From IMG/VR virus record IMGVR_UViG_2695420886_000004: a stretch of 64,000 bases of DNA, one strand, 5' to 3'. Numbering within the stretch: the first letter of the stretch is position 1; every line of letters begins with the position of its first letter. The notes beneath the pieces are model-generated. The model worked only from the letters and a program-made list of their open reading frames with translations. It searched no databases and was not told the DNA's origin. The position numbers and the translations under genes were made by a program. Source of the stretch: a virus. Shown here piece after piece: positions 10,818 to 46,354 of the stretch.

Positions 10818-11189
10818 ATGGACAACCTGCTGTCCGCACTGCAATCCGAGATCCTGCCGCTGATGCTGCAGGTGATTTCCGCCATCGTCGGCCTGATCAT
10901 CGCCTGGGCGGCCGCCACCGCGAAACAGCGCTGGGGCATCGAGATCGAGGGGCGCCACCGGGAGGCGCTGCACAGCGCCATCATGTCCGGGGTCCGGGCC
11001 GCCCTGCTGGCGCGGCTGCCGCGCGAGGCCGTGATCTCGGCCGCGCTGGACTATACGCGGGCAAGCGTGCCCGACGCGCTCAAGGCCCTGCAGCCGAATG
11101 ATGCGGTGCTGACCCGGATCGTCGCCGCGAAGCTGAAGGAGGCGCTGGACCAAGTGCCGCAAACGGCGACGGTGGGTGGCGGCGCATGA
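10818..11189 (+). CDS. holin-like membrane protein
   Basis: N-terminal TM helix directly after endolysin. Confidence 0.5.
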   Translation: MDNLLSALQSEILPLMLQVISAIVGLIIAWAAATAKQRWGIEIEGRHREALHSAIMSGVRAALLARLPREAVISAALDYTRASVPDALKALQPNDAVLTRIVAAKLKEALDQVPQTATVGGGA

Positions 11190-11551
11190 GCGGTGAGGTG
11201 CTGAACATCTCGCCCATCGTGGTCTGGGCCGTCGCGCTGTCGCAGCTGCTGACCTTCGGCCTGACGATCTGGAACCTGATGGCCTCGGGCAGCCGCGCCA
11301 ATGCCAAGCGGTTGGCCGAGCAGGCGGCGGTGCTCGATGCCCACAACCTGCGCATCACCGGCCTTGAAACCGGCCGGTCCCAGCTGCCGTCGAACAAGGA
11401 TCTGCACGAGCTCGAACTGGCTATGGAGCAGCTCAAGGGCGACATCCGCGCCATGACCGCCGCGATGACGGGGCAATCCGCGATCATGGAACGGCTCGAA
11501 CAGATCGTGGCACGGCACGAGCAACACCTTTTGGACGGGGGCAAGCGATGA
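11186..11551 (+). CDS. DUF2730-like TM/coiled-coil protein
   Basis: TM helix then coiled coil; homolog at 46860..47210. Confidence 0.72.
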   Translation: MSGEVLNISPIVVWAVALSQLLTFGLTIWNLMASGSRANAKRLAEQAAVLDAHNLRITGLETGRSQLPSNKDLHELELAMEQLKGDIRAMTAAMTGQSAIMERLEQIVARHEQHLLDGGKR

Positions 11552-27857: not shown

Positions 27858-30800
27858 GGGCCGTCTGTGTCATCGTCCGCAATCCGCTCGATCCGCTGCG
27901 CTCGCGCGAGGTCGCGGTCCTGCGCCGCCGGGTGCGGATCCGGGCACTGGCACCGCGGGACGTGCCGGTCGTTGCGATCCTCAACGGGCGCCCGGTGCTG
28001 CGGGCCGGGTGGCGGCGCAAGCTGGCCGAAGGCGATCAGCTGGTCTTTGCCGTCCTGCCCGCGGGCGGCGGCGGCGGCTCGAACCCGCTGCGCACGCTGC
28101 TGATGATCGCGCTGGCGGCGTTTGCCATGCCTCTGAGCGGGATGATGTTCGGAGGCATCGGCGGGACAGTTTTGGGCGTGTCGGCGACACGTCTCGGAGC
28201 AATGGGCATCATGTTGCTGGGCGCGGTGGCGATCAACGCGCTGTTCCCGATCCCGCGGCCGTCGCAATTGCCGAGCCCGTCGCCGACCTATCAGCTCGAC
28301 GCCCAGGGCAACTATGCCCGCCTGGGCGCGCCGATCCCGGTGCAATACGGGCGGCTGCTCGCCTATCCGGATCTGGCGGCCCAGCCCTATACCGAGTTCG
28401 CGGGCAATGAGCAGTATCTGTATCAGCTGCTGTGCCTCGGCGCGGGCGACTACGACATCGAGGAGATCCGGATCAAGGACACCGCGATCGACGCCTTCGC
28501 CGAGATCGAGACCGAGATCATCCCGCCGGGCGGCACTGTCACGCTGTTTCCGACCGCCGTGGTGATGTCGGAGGAGGTCTCGGGCCAGGAGCTCGCAGGG
28601 TCCAGGGGCGGGACCTATGTCCGGTCCGGCACCACGATCACCGTGGCCGAGGCCGCCCATGGCCGGGCCTCCGGGCAGATGGTGATGCTGATGTTCCCCT
28701 ATCCGGCGCCCGCCGCGGGGGTGCGGACTGTGACACCGACCGGACCGGGCACGATCACCGTGACGGCGCCGGGCGGCACCGGGTCCGGCACCGTTACCGG
28801 CAGCTGGACGGACACCCGAGGCGATGTTGACGTCTACAGGACGTTCAGTGGCACCTGGGTCTGGTCCGGCACCACGATCACCATTACCGGACCGGCCGCC
28901 CCGGAAACGTCCATCGGACACCCCTTTCTCTCGGCTGGCAGCTTCGTGCCGCCGGTCGCCGCCGACGTCGATCTGACCTTCGTCAGCCTGACCGGGCCGA
29001 GCGAGGTGCTGCAGATCGCCGCGATGCCCGATGACAACAGCTTCACCGTCACCTCGTCCCTGTCGATCGGGACCTCTGGCAGCGTCATCATCCGCGACGT
29101 GCTGGGCGGGGCGGTCGGATTTGTCAGCGCCCCGGCCGACACGATCACGCGCCATATCGGCGTCGATCTCGTGCTTCCCTACGGCCTGTTCGCGGGGGCG
29201 AGCGGGTCGCTCGAAACCAAGAGCCTGACCGTCACCTTCGAGGCGCGTGCGATCGATGATCAGGGCCAGCCGCTCGGCGACTGGCAGGTGCTTGGCACGC
29301 GCACGATCACCGACCGCACCAACACGCCGATCCGGAGGTCCTACCGGTTCGCGGTGGCCCCCGGCCGCTATGCCGTGCGCGCTGTGCGCGACGACGCCAA
29401 ATCGACCAGCACCTCGGACGGGCATGTCGTGCTCTGGGCCGGGCTGCGGGCCTATCTGCGCCAGCCGCAGAATTTCGGGCCGGTGACGCTGATCGCCGTG
29501 CGGATGCGGGCCACCAACAACCTGTCGATGCAGGCGTCGCGGCAAATCGCGGTCTTGGCCACGCGCCGTCTGCCGGTCTGGACCGGCACCGGCTGGACCG
29601 CCCCCGTCGCCACGCGTTCGATCGCCTGGGCAATCGCGGACGCCGCCCGCAACGCCGATTACGGCCCCGGCATGGCCGATGCCGAGATCGATCTGGATGC
29701 GCTGCTGGATCTGGATGCGATCTGGGCCGCCCGTGAGGATTGCTTCGATGCGCGCTTTGACCAGCCCGGGACCTGGTGGGACCAGATCCAGAAAATCGCC
29801 CGGGCGGGCCGGGCCGCCTGTTTCGTGCAGGGCGGCGTGTTGCGCACGGTGCGCGACGGCCCGGCCTCTGTGCCGACGCTGCATTTTTCCGAGCGCAACA
29901 TCACCCGCGGGTCGTTCGCGGTGGACTATCTGATGCCCACCGCGGACACGGCGGACACGATCCTCGCGAGCTATTTCGACGCGACATCCTGGTCCGACCA
30001 GACGGTGCGGTGCCGGATCCCGGGCAGCCGCGCCCCAAAGGCGGCCAAGGTGCAGCTGTTCGGCGTCACCGGCCGCGATCAGGCCGTGCGCGACGGCACC
30101 TATCTTGCCGCCGCAAATCAGCGCCGTCGTCGCATCGTGCGCTTCGACGTCGAGCTGGAGGGCCGGATGCCGATGATCGGCGAGCTGATCTCGGTGCAGC
30201 ATTCCATGCCCGCCTGGGGCGCGCAGGCAGAGGTGCTGGACTGGGATCCGGCCGCGCGGCTGTTGACAGTGTCAGAGCCGATGACCTTTGCCCCGAGCGG
30301 CACCCATCATCTCGGTTTGCGGCGCCCCGACGGATCGCTTTGCGGTCCGATCGTCGTCACGGCCGGGCCGCGGCCCGAGCAGGTCGTCCTGGCCGAGGCG
30401 CCGGATTTCGAGATCGCGACCGGCACCGGGATGGAGCGCACGCGGATTTCCTTTGGCGTCGGCACCACATGGGCGGCGCTGGCCAAGGTTGCCGACATCA
30501 AGGCAAAATCCCTCACCGATTACACCCTTCAAGCGGTCGTTGAAGACCCGTCCGTGCATACCGCCGAAGATGGCACGGTAGCCCCGCCGGTGGTCTGGTC
30601 GCAGCTGCCGTCGCGGGCCACCCGGCCCGTCGTGCGCGGCCTGATCGGGCGCCGATCGACCGACAGCCTGACCAAGGCGGTCTTCGCCTGGCAACCCGCA
30701 GCGGGCGCCGAGAGCTATCAGATCGAGATGGCCGAGGGGGACGATCCGAGCGCGGGCGATGTCACCTGGACCCGTGTCGGCGACACCACCTCGACCGCCT

Positions 30801-36187: not shown

Positions 36188-36466
36188 ATGAAAGACCATC
36201 CGCAAAGCCCGCCGCCCGCCAATACGATCAATCCGAGCACGCTCTGGCGCCGGTCCATCGAGAACCTGCGCGAGGCACGGCGTCAGGCGCCGATCATGAT
36301 GGATTTCGAGGGTCGTGACGGCCGGACGCGGGATGCCGCGGCCGAGGCCTATGTCACCGCGGCCGAGGCCCTGGTGATCGATCTCGGGACGCTGCTCGAA
36401 CTTGGGCAGCTCGAAGCGGTCGAGGAGTGCATGACCCTCGGCGGCTCCTGGCGCATCCCCGCCTGA
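36188..36466 (+). CDS. hypothetical early protein
   Basis: 92 aa, SD GAGGAG. Confidence 0.6.
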   Translation: MKDHPQSPPPANTINPSTLWRRSIENLREARRQAPIMMDFEGRDGRTRDAAAEAYVTAAEALVIDLGTLLELGQLEAVEECMTLGGSWRIPA

Positions 36467-36526
36467 TCCTTTCCTTCCCGAGCTGAGCCCTTCCTTCGCG
36501 AGACCTTCAAGCATCGTTGAACGATC

Positions 36527-38641
36527 ATGAAACGCTGGATGACCATCGCCGAGATCGCCGAGGCCAAGCTGCCTGGCCTGCCGCCGTCGCCCCGAGGAGT
36601 GGCGAAACGGGCGCAGTCCGAGGGCTGGGCGACGCGGACGACCCAGGTGCGCAAGCGCAAGGGCCGCGGCGGTGGTCTGGAGTTCTCGGTTGAACTGCTG
36701 CCGGACGAGGCCCGCGCCGAGCTGATCCGGCGCGAGGCGAACCCGGGTGAACCGGTCAACGTGATCACGCTGCGCGAGAATGACCCGCTGACAGGTGCCG
36801 AGCGCGATCGGCGCGACGCGCGACTGCATGTGCTCGCTGCGTTTGACGAGTTCTTGGAAGCGAACCATCTGACTGTTCGCGCGGGATACACGATGTTCGC
36901 GGATGCATGGAACGGCGACTTGATCGGCGCTCCAGAGCCCGTCAAGGCGCTCGTGCCCAGACTCACGCGTGACCGCCTGATCGAATGGGCCGCCATCCGT
37001 CGCCGGGACGGTGACGACGCCCTGGGCATTGACCGCCGTGGACGCCCGGCCAAGATCGAGGCCGCGGCCGACGGTGCGGTGGTCACGGCGCTCTTGGGGG
37101 CGATCGCGAAGCAATCCTTCCTTTCGGCGGATCAGCTTGGTGCCTATCTGCGCGACCGCTTCGGCGATGCGCTGCCCGAGATCAGCGAACGGACCATCCA
37201 GCGTGCCAGGACCAAGTATGAGGCGGAACACCGCAACGCGCTGATGTCGATCCGCGACCCGGACCGGTTCCGGTCCACGGTCGAACACAGCGCCACCAAC
37301 TCGACCTTCGCCGCGGGCCTCAATGACCTCTGGCAGATCGACGCCTCGCCTGCCGACGTGATGCTGGCGGGCAAACGGCGGCACTCGATCTATCTGGCGA
37401 TCGACATCTGGAGCCGCCGGGTGCGGGTGCTGGTCACCCGCTCGCCCCGCGCCGAAGCGGTGGCGATGCTGCTGCGCGCCTGCATCCTCGCCTGGGGCGT
37501 GCCGCGGCGCGTCAAGACCGACAACGGCAGCGATTTCAAGGCCAAGTCGATCACCCGCCTCTTCGCCGCGATGCAGATCGAACACGAGCTGTCCGCCCCT
37601 TACGAGCCGAAGAGCAAGGGCAACGTCGAGCGCGCCATCGGCACCTTCCAGCGTGACCTTGCCACCTGCCCGGGCTTCATCGGCCACTCGGTCGCCGACC
37701 GCAAAGTGATCGAGAGCCGCAAAGCCTTCTCGAAACGCCTCGGCATGTCGGAGCTGGATCTCTTCGACGTGCAGATGGACCTGCCCGAGTTCCAGCAATG
37801 GTGCAACGACTGGTCCGACAAGGTCTACGCGCACCGGCAGCACTCCGGGCTGAAAAAGCTCACGCCGTTCATGCGGGCGGCCAGCTGGCGGGGCGAGCTG
37901 CGCCGCCTGGAACATCCGAAGGCGCTCGACATCCTCCTCGCCCCGATCGCGGGCCGGGACGGGGTGCGCACGGTCGGCAAGCAAGGGCTGAAGATCGGCT
38001 CCGAACACTACCAGACCAGCGCCGCGCCGGTCGGCAGCGAAGTGCTCGTCCGGATGGACCCCTGCGACCTCGGCCGGGCCATCGTCTTCTCGCTCGACGG
38101 GGAAACCTACCTCGGCGACGCGATCTGCCCGCACCTGGCGGGAGAGGATCCGGTGGAGGTCACGATGCGCGTCAAGGCCGCGCAGAAGGCACTACTCAAG
38201 GAAGAAACCGACCGGATCAAAGGCGAGATGAGAAAGATCAAGCCGCGCGATTTCTCGGACGCGCTGATCCGTCAGGGCGAAAAGCGGGCGGCGAACCTCG
38301 CCTACATCGAGCGCCCGGCGACCCCGTTCAGCACCCCTGCGCTCGATGCGGCCAAGGCGGCGCTCGACGGTGCCACTCCGACCGCCCCCACCGCCTACGA
38401 CCCGGTGGTCGTCGCGACACAGCTGGCCGAGGTGGTGCGCCTGCCCGCGCAGCGCCGTCCGATCCAGCAAGACCGTATGCAGGACCATTTCCGCCGCGCC
38501 ATCGACCTCGAAGAGGCGATCGCGGCCGGGGAACAGATCAGCGAGGCCGATGCGGCCTGGCTGCGCAGCTATCAGCAGCACCCCGACTACCGGGGCGCGA
38601 AGCGGATTTTCGAGATCCACGGTCGACGGATGTTCGGCTGA
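36527..38641 (+). CDS. Mu-like transposase A (DDE)
   Basis: KRWMTIAEIA HTH; WQIDASP, KTDNGSDF, GNVERAIG. Confidence 0.95.
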   Translation: MKRWMTIAEIAEAKLPGLPPSPRGVAKRAQSEGWATRTTQVRKRKGRGGGLEFSVELLPDEARAELIRREANPGEPVNVITLRENDPLTGAERDRRDARLHVLAAFDEFLEANHLTVRAGYTMFADAWNGDLIGAPEPVKALVPRLTRDRLIEWAAIRRRDGDDALGIDRRGRPAKIEAAADGAVVTALLGAIAKQSFLSADQLGAYLRDRFGDALPEISERTIQRARTKYEAEHRNALMSIRDPDRFRSTVEHSATNSTFAAGLNDLWQIDASPADVMLAGKRRHSIYLAIDIWSRRVRVLVTRSPRAEAVAMLLRACILAWGVPRRVKTDNGSDFKAKSITRLFAAMQIEHELSAPYEPKSKGNVERAIGTFQRDLATCPGFIGHSVADRKVIESRKAFSKRLGMSELDLFDVQMDLPEFQQWCNDWSDKVYAHRQHSGLKKLTPFMRAASWRGELRRLEHPKALDILLAPIAGRDGVRTVGKQGLKIGSEHYQTSAAPVGSEVLVRMDPCDLGRAIVFSLDGETYLGDAICPHLAGEDPVEVTMRVKAAQKALLKEETDRIKGEMRKIKPRDFSDALIRQGEKRAANLAYIERPATPFSTPALDAAKAALDGATPTAPTAYDPVVVATQLAEVVRLPAQRRPIQQDRMQDHFRRAIDLEEAIAAGEQISEADAAWLRSYQQHPDYRGAKRIFEIHGRRMFG

Positions 38642-38701
38642 GGAAGGTGCCGCCGGGAGCGTGCAGGCCCCACGGCGGCGAGCAGTGAAGTGAGGAAGAA
38701 C

Positions 38702-39442
38702 ATGACAGAGAGCAACAGGCAGTTCAACAGCGTCGCGCCCCTGCGCAACGTGGTGGCGATGGTGCAGCTCGTTGACCGCGTGATCTCGCGGGCGCCGACG
38801 CTGCCGGGCATGGCGGTCTTCTACGGGCCGTCGGGCTACGGCAAAAGCTCGGCCGCCACCTACGCGATGAACACCTTCGGCGCCTATTACATCCAGGCAG
38901 AAAGCACCTGGTCGAAGAAGAGCCTGTGCGAAGCGATCTCGCTTGAGATCGGCATCGAGCCCTCGGGCCGCATCGATCAGATGGTGCGGGCGATCTACCG
39001 CGAGATCAGCGCCACCGGCCGCCCGCTTCTGATCGACGAGGCCGATCACATCGTCGCCCGCGGCCTGATCGAACTGGTCCGCGACATCTATGAGAAATCC
39101 GAGGCCAGCATCATCCTGATCGGCGAGGAAGACCTGCCGCGCAAGCTGATGCGCTGGGAACGGGTGCATGGCCGGATGCTGGCCTGGGTGGCGGCCGAGC
39201 CGGGCACGATCACCGATGTGACGCTCCTGCAGGAGATCTACTGCCCCGGCGTCGAGATCGAAGAGGCCCTGAAACAGCGCCTGCTGACCGAGTCGCGCAA
39301 CTCGATCCGCCGCATCTGCGTGAACCTCAACGAAATCTCGCTGCTGGCGCGGCGCAACGGCACGCAGACGGTCACCGCGGCCGACTGGGGGCAAGGCAGT
39401 TTCTTCACCGGCGAACCGCCGCGCCCGCGGGGGCTGAAATGA
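38702..39442 (+). CDS. MuB-like AAA+ ATPase
   Basis: GPSGYGKS, LLIDEAD. Confidence 0.92.
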   Translation: MTESNRQFNSVAPLRNVVAMVQLVDRVISRAPTLPGMAVFYGPSGYGKSSAATYAMNTFGAYYIQAESTWSKKSLCEAISLEIGIEPSGRIDQMVRAIYREISATGRPLLIDEADHIVARGLIELVRDIYEKSEASIILIGEEDLPRKLMRWERVHGRMLAWVAAEPGTITDVTLLQEIYCPGVEIEEALKQRLLTESRNSIRRICVNLNEISLLARRNGTQTVTAADWGQGSFFTGEPPRPRGLK

Positions 39443-40032
39443 GAAAGCGCGTCGATACCATGCAGAAGGAAGGCATGACGAACCCGCGCCAGACGATCTG
39501 GACCGCGATCCGGGATCTGGCGGGCGAGGATCTTGCGGGCCAGTTCACCGTGACGGACATCGTCGATCGCACCGGCGTGCATCGCAAAACCGCGTCGGAC
39601 TATTTCGCCTGCCTAGTGGCGGCCGAGTACCTTACGGCGACTGCCGACACCCCGCCGGTCTTCGTTCTCCGCAAGGATGGTGGCGTGCATGCTCCCCGCG
39701 TGCGTCGCGACGGCTCGGCCGTGACCCAGGGCGCAGGCGCGCTGAACATGTGGAGGTCGATGCGCGGGCTGGCGCAGTTCAGCTATCGCGATATCGCGTT
39801 GCATTCGACTACGCCGACCGTCTCAGTGAACGAGGAAACGGCGAAGAGCTTTTGCGCGATGCTGCTCGCCACCGGGTTCCTGCGCGTCGTTCAGAAAGCT
39901 GACCCGGCCAAGGCTCGCCTTGCCATCTATCGCCTCATTCGCAACGACGGTCCGAAGCCGCCGCAGATCCAGCGCGTCAAGCAGGTCTTCGACCCGAACA
40001 CCGGCAAGGTCTATCAGCGGGGGGCGAACTGA
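39439..40032 (+). CDS. winged-helix early protein
   Basis: Homolog of 4938..5525. Confidence 0.75.
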   Translation: MRKRVDTMQKEGMTNPRQTIWTAIRDLAGEDLAGQFTVTDIVDRTGVHRKTASDYFACLVAAEYLTATADTPPVFVLRKDGGVHAPRVRRDGSAVTQGAGALNMWRSMRGLAQFSYRDIALHSTTPTVSVNEETAKSFCAMLLATGFLRVVQKADPAKARLAIYRLIRNDGPKPPQIQRVKQVFDPNTGKVYQRGAN

Positions 40033-40397
40033 TGTCCTTCGTCGAAACCGCTGAAAAGGCTTGGGGCAAGCCGCTGCCCGACTGGATCGCCGTGCTGGCC
40101 CGCCAGTGCGATGAGGGCACGCAGCGCAAGGCGGCCGAGCGGCTGGGCTATTCGGCAGGCCTCGTCAGCAACGTCCTGCGCAAGAGTTACGCGGGCAACA
40201 TGGCGGCGGTCGAGGAAGCCGTGCGCGGCGCCTGGATGGGCGACACCGTCGTCTGCCCGGCCATGGGCACGATCCCCTCGGACACCTGTCTCGACTGGCG
40301 GCGCAAGGCGAAGAAGTTCGCGGCAACGAACAACCATCGCGTCCGGATGTTCAAGGCCTGCAAGGCCTGCGCCCGCAACCAAAAGGAGGGCGCATGA
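40032..40397 (+). CDS. HTH plus Cys-motif early protein
   Basis: Homolog of 5522..5893. Confidence 0.72.
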   Translation: MSFVETAEKAWGKPLPDWIAVLARQCDEGTQRKAAERLGYSAGLVSNVLRKSYAGNMAAVEEAVRGAWMGDTVVCPAMGTIPSDTCLDWRRKAKKFAATNNHRVRMFKACKACARNQKEGA

Positions 40398-40639
40398 TGT
40401 TCGCCAGCCTCGGCATTGACGCACTGCCCGAACGACTGCGCGCGGCGATCGAGCTCAGTAACATCACGATCGCCGAAGCCGCTCGCCGCTGCGAAATGCC
40501 CCAGCCGTCGATCGAAGGCTATCTCGCGGGCAAGAACATGCCCGGCGCCCGCGCCATCGCCGCGATCTGTGTCGGACTGAAAATCTCGGCGGACTGGCTG
40601 CTGTTCGGCACCGGCCATGCCCGGCGGGGGTGGCAATGA
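40394..40639 (+). CDS. XRE-family HTH protein
   Basis: RLRAAI...TIAEAARRCEMPQPSIEGYL.GKNMP...ISADWLLFG. Confidence 0.8.
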   Translation: MMFASLGIDALPERLRAAIELSNITIAEAARRCEMPQPSIEGYLAGKNMPGARAIAAICVGLKISADWLLFGTGHARRGWQ

Positions 40640-40869
40640 CCGAGGACATCGTCCGGCTGACCAACGACGAGCTGATGAACCGGGCCGCGCGCGCCCTGGG
40701 CAAGATCGATCAGCACGGCCCGCGCGGCGTGACCCTCGTCTCCTTCGAAGAAATCGAGGCCATGGCGGGCCTGCTCGCCTGCCTCGGGCTTGTCCCGGCC
40801 TACCCGGGGCAAGCCATCCCGAAAACCCGCTTCCTCACCACCTACACCAAGGGCAGGACCGATGTCTGA
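40636..40869 (+). CDS. conserved hypothetical protein
   Basis: Homolog of 6350..6571. Confidence 0.65.
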   Translation: MTEDIVRLTNDELMNRAARALGKIDQHGPRGVTLVSFEEIEAMAGLLACLGLVPAYPGQAIPKTRFLTTYTKGRTDV

Positions 40870-41512
40870 TTTCTCCCCCGCCGCGGTGCCCACGGGCATC
40901 ATCGACGTCAACGGCAAGGCCTACATGACAGACGCGAAGGGCGCGCTCATGCCGGTCGAGCTGATCAAACCCCAGCATGTCCTTGAGGACGAGACGGTGC
41001 GCAAGATCATGGGCTTCGCACTGGCGCTCTCGGCGCAGGTGACCCGGTTCAAGGAACACACCTACGAGGATCTCGGAGCGTTCGATGCGCTGCTGGAGCA
41101 GGAATATGGCCTGACCAAGGGCGGACCGAAGGGCAACCGCACCTATCAGAGCTTCGACGGGCTGATGAAGATCGAGGTCCGCGTCAACGACCTGATCGAC
41201 TTCGGGCCCGAGCTGCAGATCGGCAAGGCGCTCCTGGACGAATGCCTCACTGAATGGGCCGAGGACAGCCGCCCCGAGGTTCGGGCGCTGATCACCAAGA
41301 CCTTCAACACGGAAAAAGAGGCCCAGGTGAACCGGGCGCTGCTGTTCACGCTGCTCAGCCTCGAAGTCGAGGACGCGCGCTGGAACCGCGCCATGGATGC
41401 TATCCGCGAGGCGATCCGGATCGTGGGCTCGAAGACCTACTACCGCATCCAGATGCGCGCCGCGCCCGATGCGCCTTGGACCTCGGTCACGATCGATCTC
41501 GCCAAGGCCTGA
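40862..41512 (+). CDS. DUF3164 family protein
   Basis: Homolog of 6587..7249. Confidence 0.85.
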   Translation: MSDFSPAAVPTGIIDVNGKAYMTDAKGALMPVELIKPQHVLEDETVRKIMGFALALSAQVTRFKEHTYEDLGAFDALLEQEYGLTKGGPKGNRTYQSFDGLMKIEVRVNDLIDFGPELQIGKALLDECLTEWAEDSRPEVRALITKTFNTEKEAQVNRALLFTLLSLEVEDARWNRAMDAIREAIRIVGSKTYYRIQMRAAPDAPWTSVTIDLAKA

Positions 41513-41588
41513 CCCCATTCCCGGCCGCCCACCCGGCCGGGGCCAGCCCGCCACTCACGGAACACCCCGAAACAGACAGGAGGCCCAG

Positions 41589-41867
41589 ATGGGCAAAACA
41601 CCGACTTTCTCGAAATCCGACCTCGCCCGGACACTCTCGGAACCGCTCAATCTGCCCAAGAGCAAAGTCGAGGCGCTGATCGACATCGTCTTCACCTCGA
41701 TCCGTGCCCGCGCCGAAGCCGGTGCCACCGTCGCCATCGCGGGCTTTGGCCGTTTCGAGGTAAAAACCAAGCCCGCTCGCGCCGGGCGCAACCCGCGCAC
41801 GGGCGAGAGCGTGCAGATCCCCGAGAGCCGCAAGCTGACCTTCCGCCCCTCGAAATCGAAAGCCTGA
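41589..41867 (+). CDS. hup: HU-family DNA-binding protein
   Basis: IAGFGRFEV...ARAGRNPRTGESVQIP..RKLTFRPS. Confidence 0.92.
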   Translation: MGKTPTFSKSDLARTLSEPLNLPKSKVEALIDIVFTSIRARAEAGATVAIAGFGRFEVKTKPARAGRNPRTGESVQIPESRKLTFRPSKSKA

Positions 41868-41930
41868 GCGAAACGCGCTCGGGCAACCGGGTGCGTCGTC
41901 GGGGTGTTGTGGCCCCGGCCTGATGAGCAG
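41868..41930 (+). ncRNA. type II hammerhead ribozyme
   Basis: GAAA 41870..73; 10-bp stem III with GCAA loop; GUC site (C41897); 7-bp stem I; CUGAUGA 41920..26; 2-bp stem II. Confidence 0.8.
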
Positions 41931-41946
41931 CTGGAGGGTAAGCAGT

Positions 41947-42180
41947 ATGTTCGAACTGAAACCGATTTCCACGGCACCCAAGACAGGCGCAAACTGGGTC
42001 GCCTACGCGTTTTTGGGGTGGTGCCCAGATGAAACCGCCGTCGATGGTGGCGACTGGCGTGTCTGCTGGTGGGAACCGGCGGTGAACGGCGGCTGCTGGT
42101 GGGGGGATCGAGATCTTCCCGAAACCCCGACACTCTGGACCGAGTTGCCCCCGGTGCCGAGCAACGGAGGGCGGGCGTGA
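41947..42180 (+). CDS. Trp-rich hypothetical protein
   Basis: LKPISTAPK...CWW...PTLWTELPPVP (DUF551-like pattern). Confidence 0.62.
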   Translation: MFELKPISTAPKTGANWVAYAFLGWCPDETAVDGGDWRVCWWEPAVNGGCWWGDRDLPETPTLWTELPPVPSNGGRA

Positions 42181-42383
42181 TGTCTTTGCTCCCTGCCGAA
42201 AATGATCCGCGTTTCGGTGTTGTCCCTCACTACGACCAAGATGGTCGACCGATGACGCCAACGGCCATCGGGTACCCCGCGGCGGCGTTCTATCGCTACC
42301 GGGCCCGTCTGGGGGCTGACGTTGAGAGCAGGATCGAAATGTGTCCGACCTCTCAATGGGGCATGCTCGGGGAAAGCTTCTGA
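42180..42383 (+). CDS. hypothetical protein
   Basis: TGATG-coupled at both ends. Confidence 0.5.
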   Translation: MSLLPAENDPRFGVVPHYDQDGRPMTPTAIGYPAAAFYRYRARLGADVESRIEMCPTSQWGMLGESF

Positions 42384-42592
42384 TGTTCATCCTTAGCGCC
42401 AGCGACGAGCACACACGCCTGCGGTCCTATTCCGCGACCACCAAGGGCACGGTCTCGATCGTCAAGATCGAGGTCGAATGCACCTCCAGCTGGGAATTCG
42501 GCTATCTGCTTCGCTCCCTGGAAGAACTCGACACCGAGACGAAGGCGGTGCGCGCGGCCAAGGCGGCGGCTGGTCGGTCGGGTGGGAAATGA
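42383..42592 (+). CDS. homolog of 7260..7526, C-terminus altered by deletion
   Basis: MFILS..DE.TRLRSYSAT; similarity stops at AAKA. Confidence 0.65.
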   Translation: MFILSASDEHTRLRSYSATTKGTVSIVKIEVECTSSWEFGYLLRSLEELDTETKAVRAAKAAAGRSGGK

Positions 42593-42753
42593 TCGAGCAG
42601 CGCCCCGTCCGCCGCTGGAGTGCCGAGGCCAAGGGGAGGGTCAGACGGCTGAACCTCCGCCGCCGGATCGAGAAACGGTTTCCGCTCTTTGCGGAAATCT
42701 TCATCGCGGACGAGCTCGCACGGCGTCCCCAGTATTTCAAAGGTGAAGCATGA
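42589..42753 (+). pseudogene. 3' remnant of the 7833..8177 homolog
   Basis: GWSVGWEMIEQRPVRRWS aligns with GWAVHWVMIEQRPIRRWS; 5' half missing. Confidence 0.6.
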
Positions 42754-43379
42754 GTGCCGTCAAGATGATCTACGCCGGAATCCGTGCCCTCGGGATCGAG
42801 GAGGAGGACGACCGCCGCGACCTTTATCAGCGCATCACCGGCAAGCGCCGCCTGCGCGAAATGACCCCGGCCGAGAAGGACGCCGTGGTGTCCGAACTGC
42901 GCCGCCTCGGCTTCAAGGTGGCGGGGCCGCCCCGCAAGCTCGATGGCCCCTTCGCCAAGAAGCTGCAGGCGCTCTGGATTGCCGGGTGGAACCTCGGCCT
43001 GATCCGCTCGGCCGACGATGCCGCGCTTCTGGCCTTCATCAAGCGTCAGACCGGCATCGATCACCCGCGCTGGCTGCGCGACCCGAAGCGGGCCGACAAG
43101 GCGATCGAGGCGTTGAAGGCCTGGACCGCCCGCGACGGCGGCGTGATGTGGGGCAACACGCAGGGTTTCAGCTGGCTGCGCCTGCCCGGCGCCCGTGTGG
43201 CCTGGGCGCAATGGCGCAAGATCCGGCCCGAGGCCACGCTGACGCAGTGGCAGCCGTTTTCGGCGGTGGTGCTGCAGGAGATGATGGGCGGCCAGCGCGC
43301 CAACCTCGACGCCTTGACGGCCGCCGACTGGCGCAATGTCAACAACGCCCTGGGCGAGATCATCCGGGGGGCGAAATGA
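42750..43379 (+). CDS. gemA: Mu gp16/GemA family protein
   Basis: IYAGIRALGIEEEDDRRDLY..ITGK..LREMT. Confidence 0.8.
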   Translation: MSAVKMIYAGIRALGIEEEDDRRDLYQRITGKRRLREMTPAEKDAVVSELRRLGFKVAGPPRKLDGPFAKKLQALWIAGWNLGLIRSADDAALLAFIKRQTGIDHPRWLRDPKRADKAIEALKAWTARDGGVMWGNTQGFSWLRLPGARVAWAQWRKIRPEATLTQWQPFSAVVLQEMMGGQRANLDALTAADWRNVNNALGEIIRGAK

Positions 43380-43864
43380 CCATTCTTCGGTTTCACGAGC
43401 GCTTCGCCGACAAGATCATCGCCGGGACCAAAAGCTCGACGTTCAAGCTCGGCGATGTCTACTTCAAACCCGGCGACTTTGTTCAGCTGCGCAAGCGCAA
43501 AGGCGATGACCCGAACGATACGGATCTGATCCCGCCCTCGCTGGTCTGGCAGGTTCAGCCGATGATTTTCCATTTTTCCGCCATTCGTGGGTTGATCGAG
43601 ACAATCTCGATCAACGGTGCCGCGCTTGGGCCGCTCGACTCTGAAGCCTTTGCGATCCTCGAAGGGTTCGAGCCGGTCGGCATCTGGCAAGAAGCCGAAA
43701 CTGCGCTCGAGGAAATGGGCCAGTTCTTCACGACACTCTGGCCCGAGCAGCGCGTTGTCACCGGGCATGTCATCCAGTGGGTGCCGACGGGCGGGTTCGA
43801 TCAGGTCGCGAACAACCTGTTTGCGGCTGTCATGCTCGCGAAGGAGCGCCTCGATGTCGCATGA
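43376..43864 (+). CDS. ASCH/PUA-like domain protein
   Basis: LRF...FADKIIAGTKSSTF...GD.VQL...FA..EGF. Confidence 0.62.
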   Translation: MTILRFHERFADKIIAGTKSSTFKLGDVYFKPGDFVQLRKRKGDDPNDTDLIPPSLVWQVQPMIFHFSAIRGLIETISINGAALGPLDSEAFAILEGFEPVGIWQEAETALEEMGQFFTTLWPEQRVVTGHVIQWVPTGGFDQVANNLFAAVMLAKERLDVA

Positions 43865-44048
43865 TCTCCGCACCAAGGTCGCTGCCGAAATCCTGACCGA
43901 GGTCAGAGCCCGCCGCCCGCACTGGATCGGAGGCGAACCGCAACCCTCGGATCTGCGCGGAATCGTGGGCGCGGTTCGCGTGCATACCCGGGCCGACGAA
44001 GCGCTGATCCGCCAGATCATGGACGAGGTGGTCGGTCATGCCGTCTGA
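43854..44048 (+). CDS. hypothetical protein
   Basis: SD AAGGAG; overlaps neighbours. Confidence 0.55.
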   Translation: MSHDLRTKVAAEILTEVRARRPHWIGGEPQPSDLRGIVGAVRVHTRADEALIRQIMDEVVGHAV

Positions 44049-44358
44049 AGTCGAACTGCGCGCGGCCGTGGCGCTTGCGGTCGGGGACCGGGCGCTGCGA
44101 ATGATCACCGAGCAATGCGATCATCTCGCCTTCAATGCCGATCTCGGGCGGCTTGAAGGGGTCTTCAAATCGCATGATGACAACGGCCCTAAGGAGTTCA
44201 CGGTCCGGATCGCCCTGACCGAGCCCGCGGTGCCCTTCGGGGGCCGCGCCATCGTTGTCCACATGTGCAGCGAGGACGGCTGGCAGATCGAGATGAGCGT
44301 CGTCATCCCCGCCGCTGCCTTGGCAGCTGCCGTTACCGGCGCTGAGGTGCGTGGATGA
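44038..44358 (+). CDS. hypothetical protein
   Basis: 106 aa within coupled operon. Confidence 0.55.
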   Translation: MPSEVELRAAVALAVGDRALRMITEQCDHLAFNADLGRLEGVFKSHDDNGPKEFTVRIALTEPAVPFGGRAIVVHMCSEDGWQIEMSVVIPAAALAAAVTGAEVRG

Positions 44359-44951
44359 TCTGGCCGTTCGAGACCCTGACCCCGATGAAATACGGCGCCA
44401 TCCTGTGTGACCCGCCTTGGGCCTATGTGATGCGCTCGGAAAAGGGCCATGCCAAATCGCCCGAGGCCCATTACGGAACGATGAGCCCCGAAGAACTGGC
44501 GGCGCTGCCGGTCGGCCAGCTTGCGGGGCCGGATTGCCTGATCTTCATGTGGTCGACCTGGCCGCACCTGAAGATCGCCCAGCATCTGCTCGAAGATTGG
44601 GGCTTCGCCTACATCACCGGTGGCTCCTGGAACAAGCGTGGCCGTTCCGGCAAGGCAATGGTCGGCACTGGCTATTTTCTGCGCAGCAGCTGCGAGCCCT
44701 ACCTGGTGGGCAAGATCGGCAGGCCGTCGCCGGGGTCGCGCTCGGTCACCAACCTGATCGATGCGGCCGAGATCCCCGACACGATCGAGGCGCTGCGGCG
44801 CGAGCATTCCCGCAAACCTGCCGAGATGCGCGAGATGATCGAGCGGCTGCTGCCCCGGGCCTATTGCTGCGAGCTGTTCGCGCGCGAGCCTTGGCCGGGC
44901 CATGACGTCTGGGGCAACGAGACCACCAAGTTTGCGGAGGGGACACCATGA
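44355..44951 (+). CDS. MT-A70 family adenine methyltransferase
   Basis: CDPPW, IFMW, HSRKP, ELFAR. Confidence 0.9.
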   Translation: MIWPFETLTPMKYGAILCDPPWAYVMRSEKGHAKSPEAHYGTMSPEELAALPVGQLAGPDCLIFMWSTWPHLKIAQHLLEDWGFAYITGGSWNKRGRSGKAMVGTGYFLRSSCEPYLVGKIGRPSPGSRSVTNLIDAAEIPDTIEALRREHSRKPAEMREMIERLLPRAYCCELFAREPWPGHDVWGNETTKFAEGTP

Positions 44952-45319
44952 CGAATGCCCCCAAGCCCCCCGCCCATGTCGAACCCTATGTCCGGGTGCT
45001 GGGCGTCGATCTGGCGATCAAGTTCCTGCTCGCCTTCGGTGGGGCCGAGCTTTACATCCCGGCCGTGCCGAACGGGCGATCGCGGCTGGTCGAAGTGATC
45101 GGCCGCGAGGCCGCCGAGCGGCTGGCGGCGATCGCACACACGCTGCCCCGCCGCGTGCCGACGGCAAAGCCCTGGATCGCCCAGGTGTTTGACTCAAGGG
45201 GCTTGCCTAGAGCCGACATTGCCCGCACATTGCACTCGTCAGATGTTGCGGTTCGCCGCTGGCTGTCTGGCCACCACTCGCATCGCGACCAGGACAGCAG
45301 GCAATTGCGCCTGTTCTGA
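44948..45319 (+). CDS. Mor/C-like late transcription activator
   Basis: Homolog of 9450..9842. Confidence 0.75.
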   Translation: MTNAPKPPAHVEPYVRVLGVDLAIKFLLAFGGAELYIPAVPNGRSRLVEVIGREAAERLAAIAHTLPRRVPTAKPWIAQVFDSRGLPRADIARTLHSSDVAVRRWLSGHHSHRDQDSRQLRLF

Positions 45320-45330
45320 GGACCGCTCCG

Positions 45331-45343
45331 CACACCGTTGTGG
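45331..45343 (+). promoter_or_regulatory. late-promoter box of prophage B, copy 1
   Basis: CACACCGTTGTGG identical to 59949..59961; upstream of lysis operon. Confidence 0.65.
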
Positions 45344-45421
45344 GCGGTTTTCTCATTTCAAATCAATCATTCTGAACCCAATCCGAGGGCGGCCTGCGCC
45401 CTCATCCACATTGGGGGCAGC

Positions 45422-46354
45422 ATGCAGACCAGCGACAAGGGGATCGAGGCACTCGCGCTCGAAGAGGGGGATGTCCTTCGGGCGTATCGGTGCCCCGCGG
45501 GCCGGTGGACCATCGGCATGGGGCTGACCGCAGCCTCGGGCGTGATCAAGCCGCGGCCGGGCATGGTGATCACCGCCCAGCAGTCGCGTGATCTGACCCG
45601 CAAGGCGCTCGCCGCCAAGTACGAGCCCCGTGTCGCTCTGGTGATGACTGGGGCCAAGCAGCACGAATTTGACGCCGGGGTGCTCTTCGACTGGAACACC
45701 GGCGCGATCCAGAAGGCCTCTTGGGTGCCGCTCTGGGCGCGCAAGGCCGCGCGGTCGGCGATCGAGACGAAGTACAGGCTCTGGAACAAGGGTGGCGGCG
45801 AGGTGTTGCCGGGCCTTGTTGCGCGGCGCGAACGCGAACTGCTCATCCTGTTCTATGCCAGTTACCCGGTCGCCAAGGAAAGCCGGTTTCGGCCCTCGGT
45901 CAGCATTGCCCGGTGGGCGCTGCCTGTCGATTTCGCGGAAAAACTGGCCGCGATGCTTGCCTTCGACAAGCTCGGTTACAAGGTCGGAACAGATCCTGGC
46001 GCGATCCCCGCTGCCGAGATCCGGCGCTTCCAGTCCGACCACGGCCTGACCGCTGACGGCCGGATCGGCCGCGCCACGCTCTCGACCCTGCAAAGGCGGA
46101 TCGATGCCGCCGCCAAGACGAAGCCCGTCGCCCTGGCTGCGGTGGGCACTGCCGGGGCGTCGTCCGGCGCGACGGTGCCCACCGGCACTTCCGAGGTGAC
46201 CGACTGGATCGCCGCCCAGCCCTGGGCGATGGGCGCTGCGGCCGGTGTCGTCGGGATCTGGGGCCTGTGGCTCGCCTGGCGCTATCGCGACGTGATCGCC
46301 GCCAAAGTCTCCGCCCGCGCCCCGCGCCTTGCCGCTTTCCTCCGGAGCATCTGA
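45422..46354 (+). CDS. endolysin: T4/GH24-type lysozyme, PG-binding domain and C-terminal hydrophobic helices
   Basis: EEG...AYRCPAGRWTIGMG, GLVARRERE; FQSDHGLTADGRIG. Confidence 0.88.
   Translation: MQTSDKGIEALALEEGDVLRAYRCPAGRWTIGMGLTAASGVIKPRPGMVITAQQSRDLTRKALAAKYEPRVALVMTGAKQHEFDAGVLFDWNTGAIQKASWVPLWARKAARSAIETKYRLWNKGGGEVLPGLVARRERELLILFYASYPVAKESRFRPSVSIARWALPVDFAEKLAAMLAFDKLGYKVGTDPGAIPAAEIRRFQSDHGLTADGRIGRATLSTLQRRIDAAAKTKPVALAAVGTAGASSGATVPTGTSEVTDWIAAQPWAMGAAAGVVGIWGLWLAWRYRDVIAAKVSARAPRLAAFLRSI

Follow-up and report, generated by a model that had tools for sequence, protein, structure and literature searches.

In the 64,000-nt stretch of viral DNA analysed here (the window), the short interval behind an HU gene is in our judgement likely best explained as an ordinary, almost certainly active type II hammerhead ribozyme, which lies within the long early mRNA of an RcapMu-like transposable prophage and is predicted to cut that mRNA after C41897. 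Searching the entire window with the Rfam models gave a single match above threshold, Hammerhead_II (RF02276) at 41866-41936 (+) with 60.1 bits (E 6.3e-10); it spans the full model (positions 1-66 of 66), whose gathering score is 37 bits. The type II hammerhead with a 2-bp stem II of the original prediction is thus borne out by the very search, Infernal with the Rfam hammerhead models, that had been proposed as a check on it. Our own covariance model (R1) scores the window ribozyme at 92.9 bits. Its parts are as follows.

41866-41936 (+): type II hammerhead ribozyme, full Rfam match (RF02276; own model R1).
41868-41869 (+): 5' strand of stem II, pairing with 41927-41928 (Rfam alignment).
41870-41873 (+): core G12 A13 A14 plus A15.1 (GAAA), from the sequence, invariant in alignments A1 and A2.
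41873-41896 (+): stem III hairpin, 10 bp, GCAA tetraloop (sequence, folding, covariation).
41897-41898 (+): predicted scissile bond C17 (41897) / G1.1 (41898), from its position in the hammerhead consensus.
41898-41919 (+): stem I hairpin, 7+1 bp, with loop GUUGUG at 41906-41911 (sequence, folding, covariation).
41920-41928 (+): core CUGAUGA (41920-41926) and 3' strand of stem II, GC (41927-41928) (sequence, Rfam match).
41929-41938 (+): 3' tail AGCUG, overlapping the Shine-Dalgarno (SD) motif GGAGGG of the next gene (sequence, covariation).

All residues that define a hammerhead core are in place: C3 U4 G5 A6 N7 G8 A9 reads CUGAUGA (41920-41926), GAA stands at 41870-41872, and position 17, a non-G, is C41897 at the end of the GUC triplet (41895-41897). 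The core-adjacent pairs are A15.1-U16.1 (A41873-U41896), G10.1-C11.1 (G41927-C41869) and N1.1-N2.1 (G41898-C41919). Type II topology follows from the order GC-GAAA-stem III-C-stem I-CUGAUGA-GC, in which stems I and III are capped and stem II, open and of 2 bp (G41868-C41928, C41869-G41927), carries the 5' and 3' ends; this GC/CG pair is invariant in 95 of 96 relatives. Stem III joins 41873-41882 to 41887-41896 with two G-U pairs among its ten (folding energy -17.6 kcal/mol), and stem I joins 41898-41904 to 41913-41919 and can be extended by U41905-G41912 (-14.5 kcal/mol). Reading the sequence therefore confirms every part that had been listed beforehand (complete core, stems I and III, GCAA loop), and the cleavage site placed after C41897 agrees with the hammerhead consensus. 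The span first given, 41868-41930, is correct to within a few bases but too short at its 3' end, since the 3' tail is predicted to pair with loop I and the functional unit hence reaches ~41933-41936. The bare core pattern without stems is expected by chance 0.3 times per window; the full sequence-plus-structure score at 41866-41936 is far beyond chance. No second ribozyme of any class was found in the whole window with the Rfam scan relaxed to E<=1, and no second hammerhead with R1. The sole extra match at E<=1, a sub-threshold CRISPR-DR29 repeat match at 27971-28001 (-) with 26.9 bits (cut-off 39, E 0.16), falls in a large structural gene of prophage A and is probably due to chance.

Two Mu-like prophages are contained in the window, and the ribozyme sits in the second, B, whose early operon includes the following genes, with regulator genes placed between MuB and DUF3164.

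36188-46354 (+): early operon of Mu-like prophage B (gene calls, Pfam, PHROG).
36527-38641 (+): MuA-type transposase (HTH_Tnp_Mu_1 + rve + Mu-transpos_C; Pfam/PHROG).
38690-39442 (+): MuB-like ATPase (AAA_22/phrog_296; Pfam/PHROG).
40790-41512 (+): DUF3164 gene (Pfam/PHROG).
41589-41867 (+): gene for an HU-family DNA-binding protein, 92 aa (Pfam PF00216 Bac_DNA_binding, 86.8 bits; phrog_379).
41947-42180 (+): first downstream ORF, 77 aa, of no Pfam or PHROG family (library scans).
42180-42383 (+): second small ORF, 67 aa, of no matching family (library scans).
42750-43379 (+): GemA (PF06252; Pfam).
44355-44951 (+): MT-A70 methylase (Pfam/PHROG).
45338-46354 (+): lysozyme (Pfam/PHROG).

With MuA, MuB and GemA present and the early genes on one strand, prophage B classes as an RcapMu-type Mu-like phage. 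The prophage setting that the original prediction had assigned to the ribozyme thus holds by the Pfam and PHROG matches of the operon, and so does its statement that prophage A has no equivalent: we found no ribozyme there at E<=1, no R1 match and, by tblastn, no HU homologue. The HU gene is preceded by SD GGAGG (41579-41583) and ends with TGA at 41865-41867, so that stem II begins at the very next base and the ribozyme starts, as had been claimed, at the HU stop. On its other side, the ribozyme tail runs directly into GGAGGG (41933-41938), an SD motif that ends 8 nt ahead of the ATG at 41947; hence the entire intergenic space between HU and the 77-aa ORF is ribozyme. Neither the 77-aa nor the 67-aa ORF has a Pfam or PHROG match, loose thresholds included. 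A simple promoter/terminator scan of the + strand returned no promoter-like or terminator-like site near the ribozyme; on that strand, terminator-like sites come no closer than 36004 and 45327/45334. Given the tight packing of the + strand genes and the distance of such sites, we take the ribozyme to be internal to a polycistronic early transcript.

The same arrangement recurs in related phages. Across the DUF3164-HU region, prophage B shares 68-75% nucleotide identity with the Rhodobacterales Mu-like phages RC1, RS1 and vB_PeaS-P1, and these matches stop at the 3' edge of the ribozyme. At the equivalent site, Rfam scores hammerheads in RcapMu (71.9 bits), vB_PeaS-P1 (68.1), RcWaterboi (65.8), RS1 (65.4) and RC1 (65.4), each with 0-1 nt between the HU stop and stem II; the ribozyme is annotated in none of these five records. 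The RefSeq entry of RcapMu (NC_016165 ~11126-11201; L005:1855-1930) has the label 'potential -1 frameshift' where HU ends, exactly at the start of the 71.9-bit hammerhead. Our literature search found no paper connecting RcapMu with a ribozyme, and Rhodobacter is absent from the accessible part of the Perreault 2011 supplements. Among 14 Rhodobacteraceae genome loci located through their DUF3164 protein, eight have the ribozyme, and carrier hosts include Rhodobacter maris, R. aestuarii, R. capsulatus SP18 and SP108, Chachezhania and Pseudooceanicola. The copy in the R. capsulatus SP18 chromosome prophage (L130:2603-2675; 59.5 bits) has CUUGAUGA in place of CUGAUGA, a C3-to-U core change, and may be an impaired ribozyme.

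For a wider view, an IMG/VR pattern scan followed by a covariance model built from 13 Rhodobacterales/Rhodobacteraceae copies gave a set of 100 type II hammerheads. HU is the commonest gene upstream of this class (23-27 of 100 matches), its proteins ranging down to 29% identity to the window HU, and in 15 of 23 HU-linked cases only 0-1 nt separates stem II from the HU stop. A stop codon of any upstream gene lies within 2 nt in 43 of 91 matches, which makes abutment on a stop codon a habit of the family and not a peculiarity of the window locus. The gene 3' of the hammerhead belongs in most Rhodobacterales copies to an RcapMu22-like family (phrog_23215); elsewhere it is GemA-like or DUF2786-like (both as judged by eye from N-terminal sequence) or another gene, and in the window its place is taken by two unrelated small ORFs. 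An obligate module of HU and ribozyme, which we had considered, is rejected, as IMG/VR contig L154 has an equal ribozyme right after DUF3164 and no HU; with HU missing from so close a relative, HU is not a necessary companion of the ribozyme. In four further IMG/VR contigs (L078, L028, L039, L086), matches to the type II hammerhead pattern form arrays, with 4-10 of them in a few kb and roughly one to each small gene, an arrangement that resembles published multi-hammerhead prophage operons.

When window 38000-46000 was compared by blastn with its closest relatives, homology broke at the edge of the ribozyme. R. maris is 85.6% identical through 41938 and then without match; R. capsulatus SP108 is 93.7% identical through 41939 and, after a gap, 83-91% identical from 42381 on; L154 is 89.7% identical to the DUF3164 stop (41512), then matches the ribozyme only, and then matches again from 42381. 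In L154 (3755-3870) the ribozyme is fused directly onto the DUF3164 stop (alignment A3). The features involved are these.

41504-41512 (+): the 9-nt AAGGCCTGA, end of the DUF3164 gene (sequence, alignment A3).
41859-41867 (+): AAAGCCTGA, end of HU, an 8 of 9 repeat of AAGGCCTGA (sequence, alignment A3).
41940-42380 (+): swappable two-ORF cassette (77 aa, 67 aa) (blastn breakpoints, alignment A3).

The two repeats consist of the final codons and stop of the DUF3164 gene and of HU, respectively, and bracket the segment absent from L154; because both genes share the ending AARGCCTGA, HU is a clean insertion or deletion between repeats. The cassette behind the ribozyme is replaced by unrelated sequence in SP108, R. 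maris and L154, its left breakpoint being the ribozyme/SD edge (41938/41939) and its right one the stop codon of the second ORF. Three different downstream cassettes thereby stand behind ribozymes that are 94-98% identical, with divergence starting right after GGAGGG. As divergence begins just past this motif and HU is optional, what stays constant is the ribozyme and its ribosome-binding site, between flanking genes that can be exchanged. From this we tentatively put forward, as a possibility that we would not yet favour, that the unit acts as a natural insulator junction, at which Mu-like phages swap early accessory genes exactly at hammerheads and where self-cleavage would place each cassette on an mRNA of its own, whose ends are capped by hairpins and do not depend on context. 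If true, the early operon could take up foreign genes with the expression of transposase and HU left undisturbed, and bacterial hammerheads would gain a concrete role in phage genome mosaicism.

The same breakpoints might be read in another way, namely that the main role of the ribozyme-plus-SD block is played at the DNA level, as a recombination boundary for early accessory cassettes, with cleavage secondary or serving only to ensure cassette expression. That the breakpoints of three relatives coincide with the 3' edge of the element and a fourth arrangement, lacking HU, joins it to the DUF3164 stop via the shared ending would suit such a role, as would the variable downstream genes among HU-linked copies and the 97.5% identity of the 81-nt element (41859-41939) to L154, where flanking genes reach 88-90%. 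To our minds, this is nonetheless improbable as the main role. Many relatives (the RcapMu group) retain both flanking genes and, more importantly, compensatory changes occur in all helices, so that the conservation of structure is left unexplained by selection on DNA. Among 97 distinct relatives, 96.8% of pair cells hold standard pairs, compared with 69.6% in shuffles; changes on both sides are seen in 20 of 24 pairs (8 of 10 in stem III, all 8 in stem I), the pseudoknot helix is 91.5% paired, and the signal collapses when pair partners are shifted by 1-3 columns. Between RcapMu and the window alone, two C-G pairs of stem III have become G41877-U41892 and U41879-G41890. These pairing figures are flattered by an alignment that was fitted to the covariance model; even so, their effect size together with the invariant core leaves, at the level of comparative sequence evidence, no doubt about a conserved structure. 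A boundary in DNA is, moreover, compatible with an active hammerhead in the early mRNA, not exclusive of it.

Where the window copy departs from the class is in the pseudoknot between loop I and the 3' tail. The norm is loop GUGGUG with tail AGCC(R), and covariation sets the register: loop U5 with tail G2 (U-G, C-G or U-A), loop G4 with tail C3 (G-C, once U-A), loop G3 with tail C4 (G-C in 69, G-U in 6 and A-U in 2 of 84 scored relatives) and loop U2 facing tail R5, a register supported by A-U and U-A compensations at neighbouring positions. In the window, G41930, C41931, U41932 and G41933 of the tail oppose U41910, G41909, U41908 and U41907 of the loop, giving three standard pairs (U41910-G41930, G41909-C41931, U41907-G41933) that flank U41908/U41932 at the loop G3 / tail C4 pair, usually G-C. 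Genome and viral collections were scanned for loop GUUGUG with either tail, AGCU or AGCC. All genuine hammerheads found with this loop carry AGCU (11 of 11) and none AGCC (0 of 11), the lone GUUGUG match with AGCC not being a hammerhead, even though tail U has a frequency of only ~10-15% across the class. These GUUGUG/AGCU hammerheads come in about seven separate stem contexts, including Marinomonas, Puniceibacterium and an AT-rich phage contig. A decayed pseudoknot is therefore rejected; that GUUGUG always goes with AGCU implies that U-U is a covarying, tolerated and apparently selected variant, which recurs in some seven lineages.

A second peculiarity concerns folding. The minimum-energy fold of 41860-41940 differs from that of the ribozyme and contains a competing 9-bp hairpin (41862-41870 with 41876-41884, -16.1 kcal/mol) that runs across the HU stop codon and ties up stem II together with half of stem III. 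With -10/+4 nt of flanking sequence the non-ribozyme fold is better by 9.2 kcal/mol, the largest gap among 99 relatives, and in a +/-30 nt context by 5.3 kcal/mol, a gap that 33 of 99 relatives reach. The competing hairpin was not found in the nearest relatives; it is specific to the window copy and we treat it as incidental. As a firm claim, a regulatory switch based on this fold is rejected, the gap being ordinary at +/-30 nt and the hairpin unconserved in the nearest relatives.

Both peculiarities bear on whether the window copy is slow, impaired or conditional, so that most transcripts would stay uncut and cleavage would be set by Mg2+ or by ribosomes that, while terminating on HU, would sit over stem II and the 5' arm of stem III. 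Damage to the pseudoknot is costly in vitro: in a metagenome ribozyme, shortening or mutating it lowered the rate 20- to >100-fold at 0.5 mM Mg2+ (PMC3088659). U-U takes the place of what is G-C in 69 of 84 scored relatives, and the rival fold is better in narrow context. Yet a combination kept in 11 of 11 hammerheads across about seven stem contexts looks selected rather than decayed, and the competing hairpin is missing from near relatives and has an unremarkable advantage at +/-30 nt; we hold impaired cleavage to be still less probable than a role confined mainly to DNA. Finally, a chance match or plain pair of hairpins, decay-protecting or terminator-like and without catalysis, is effectively refuted, for although core words arise by chance in a window of this size and a region of 70% G+C folds well anyway, the match has an E of 6e-10 and lacks none of the invariant core bases, many phages carry the element at this position, the core stays invariant where the stems covary, and neither hairpin is followed by a U-run.

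What the active hammerhead would do in the early mRNA can be sketched as follows. Once transcribed, the RNA would fold into capped stems I and III and an open 2-bp stem II, with the pseudoknot between loop I and the 3' tail aligning stems I and II. The backbone would then be cut in vivo between C41897 and G41898. Since only the two pairs of stem II join the products, they should part at once and irreversibly. The upstream product would retain the whole HU frame and its stop, and its 3' terminus, 30 nt farther on, would be the stem III hairpin bearing a 2',3'-cyclic phosphate; with the stop intact and the cut 30 nt past it, no non-stop mRNA should arise. In the downstream product, a flush stem I hairpin with a 5'-OH would come first, ahead of the ribosome-binding site and the 77-aa ORF. 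Hairpin-capped ends are of the kind that slow exonucleases and 5'-end-dependent RNase E, and a 5'-OH end may stabilise an mRNA or, with RNase J-type enzymes, destabilise it. The cut may leave the transposition/HU half of the message and its accessory half each with a stability and translation of its own, and the ribozyme with its ribosome-binding site may serve as a context-independent leader for any accessory genes inserted behind it. Uncoupling of HU from downstream genes by cleavage, which the original prediction had proposed, would fit the anatomy of the locus and is supported to the extent that sequence allows.

Published work lends this scheme precedent. Cleavage by hammerheads leaves 2',3'-cyclic phosphate and 5'-OH ends (PMC3088659, PMC8782182); rapid cleavage in vitro is on record for type II members that have a stem II of 1-2 bp and this pseudoknot between loop I and the 3' tail, as is cleavage of prophage copies inside long transcripts (PMC3088659). 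In total RNA of Desulfovibrio vulgaris, three type II hammerheads were caught cleaved (PMC8782182). That bacterial hammerheads uncouple their flanking genes is the usual hypothesis in the literature (PMC3088659, PMC6765202), though reviews still class their role as unresolved (PMC6765202, PMC10085705).

How, then, does the window ribozyme compare with known systems? It shares core, topology, 2-bp open stem II, a predicted loop I/3'-tail pseudoknot and prophage context with the type II hammerheads of Rfam RF02276 and Perreault 2011 (PMC3088659), and the RF02276 consensus, 3' tail included, is close to its sequence. Unlike theirs, in which the central pseudoknot pair is G-C, it has U-U. Its nearest counterparts are in the Rhodobacter phages RcapMu, RcWaterboi and RC1, Rhodovulum phage RS1 and Pelagibaca phage vB_PeaS-P1, which follow the same order, DUF3164 or Gam ... 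HU, ribozyme, SD and next gene, and likewise have GGAG within the tail; they differ in having the canonical GUGGUG/AGCC pseudoknot and mostly phrog_23215 downstream, where the window has U-U and two unrelated ORFs. Members of the same family are cleaved in vivo in D. vulgaris (cyPhyRNA-seq, PMC8782182) and flank ardA among prophage genes as a triple hammerhead in Agrobacterium tumefaciens (PMC3088659), albeit in other hosts and beside other genes, and in both cases several copies bracket genes, whereas the window has a single copy. Hammerheads and twisters associate with Mu-like phage genes (Weinberg 2015 and Roth 2014, as summarised in PMC10085705), and by that summary the Mu-like early region in which the window ribozyme lies represents the strongest published gene association for these ribozymes.

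Family, pseudoknot, short stem II, prophage context and enrichment near Mu-like genes are therefore already published, and the window find is largely ordinary; with hundreds of bacterial copies and thousands overall on record (PMC3088659), it is, as a sequence finding, expected and not surprising. What sequence comparison may modestly add is the recurrent U-U variant, HU as the commonest upstream neighbour, its novelty being weighed against the Mu-like association as summarised in PMC10085705, and the ribozyme edge as a cassette breakpoint. The locus contributes a further well-formed member to the type II hammerhead family. Because RcapMu-type phages of R. capsulatus can be grown and manipulated, it forms, together with its relatives, a practical test system. 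It offers a single fixed site between a well-understood HU and variable cargo, a natural U-U pseudoknot variant beside G-C and G-U relatives, and close relatives with clean cassette swaps at the ribozyme edge; with these assets, a core-dead prophage mutant could reveal what cleavage does for the phage. A parallel from engineering is RiboJ, a hammerhead-type insulator placed just before the SD, which gives a transcript a defined 5' end independent of upstream sequence. The natural element of the window would provide the same and, in addition, leave a hairpin-capped 3' end on the upstream gene.
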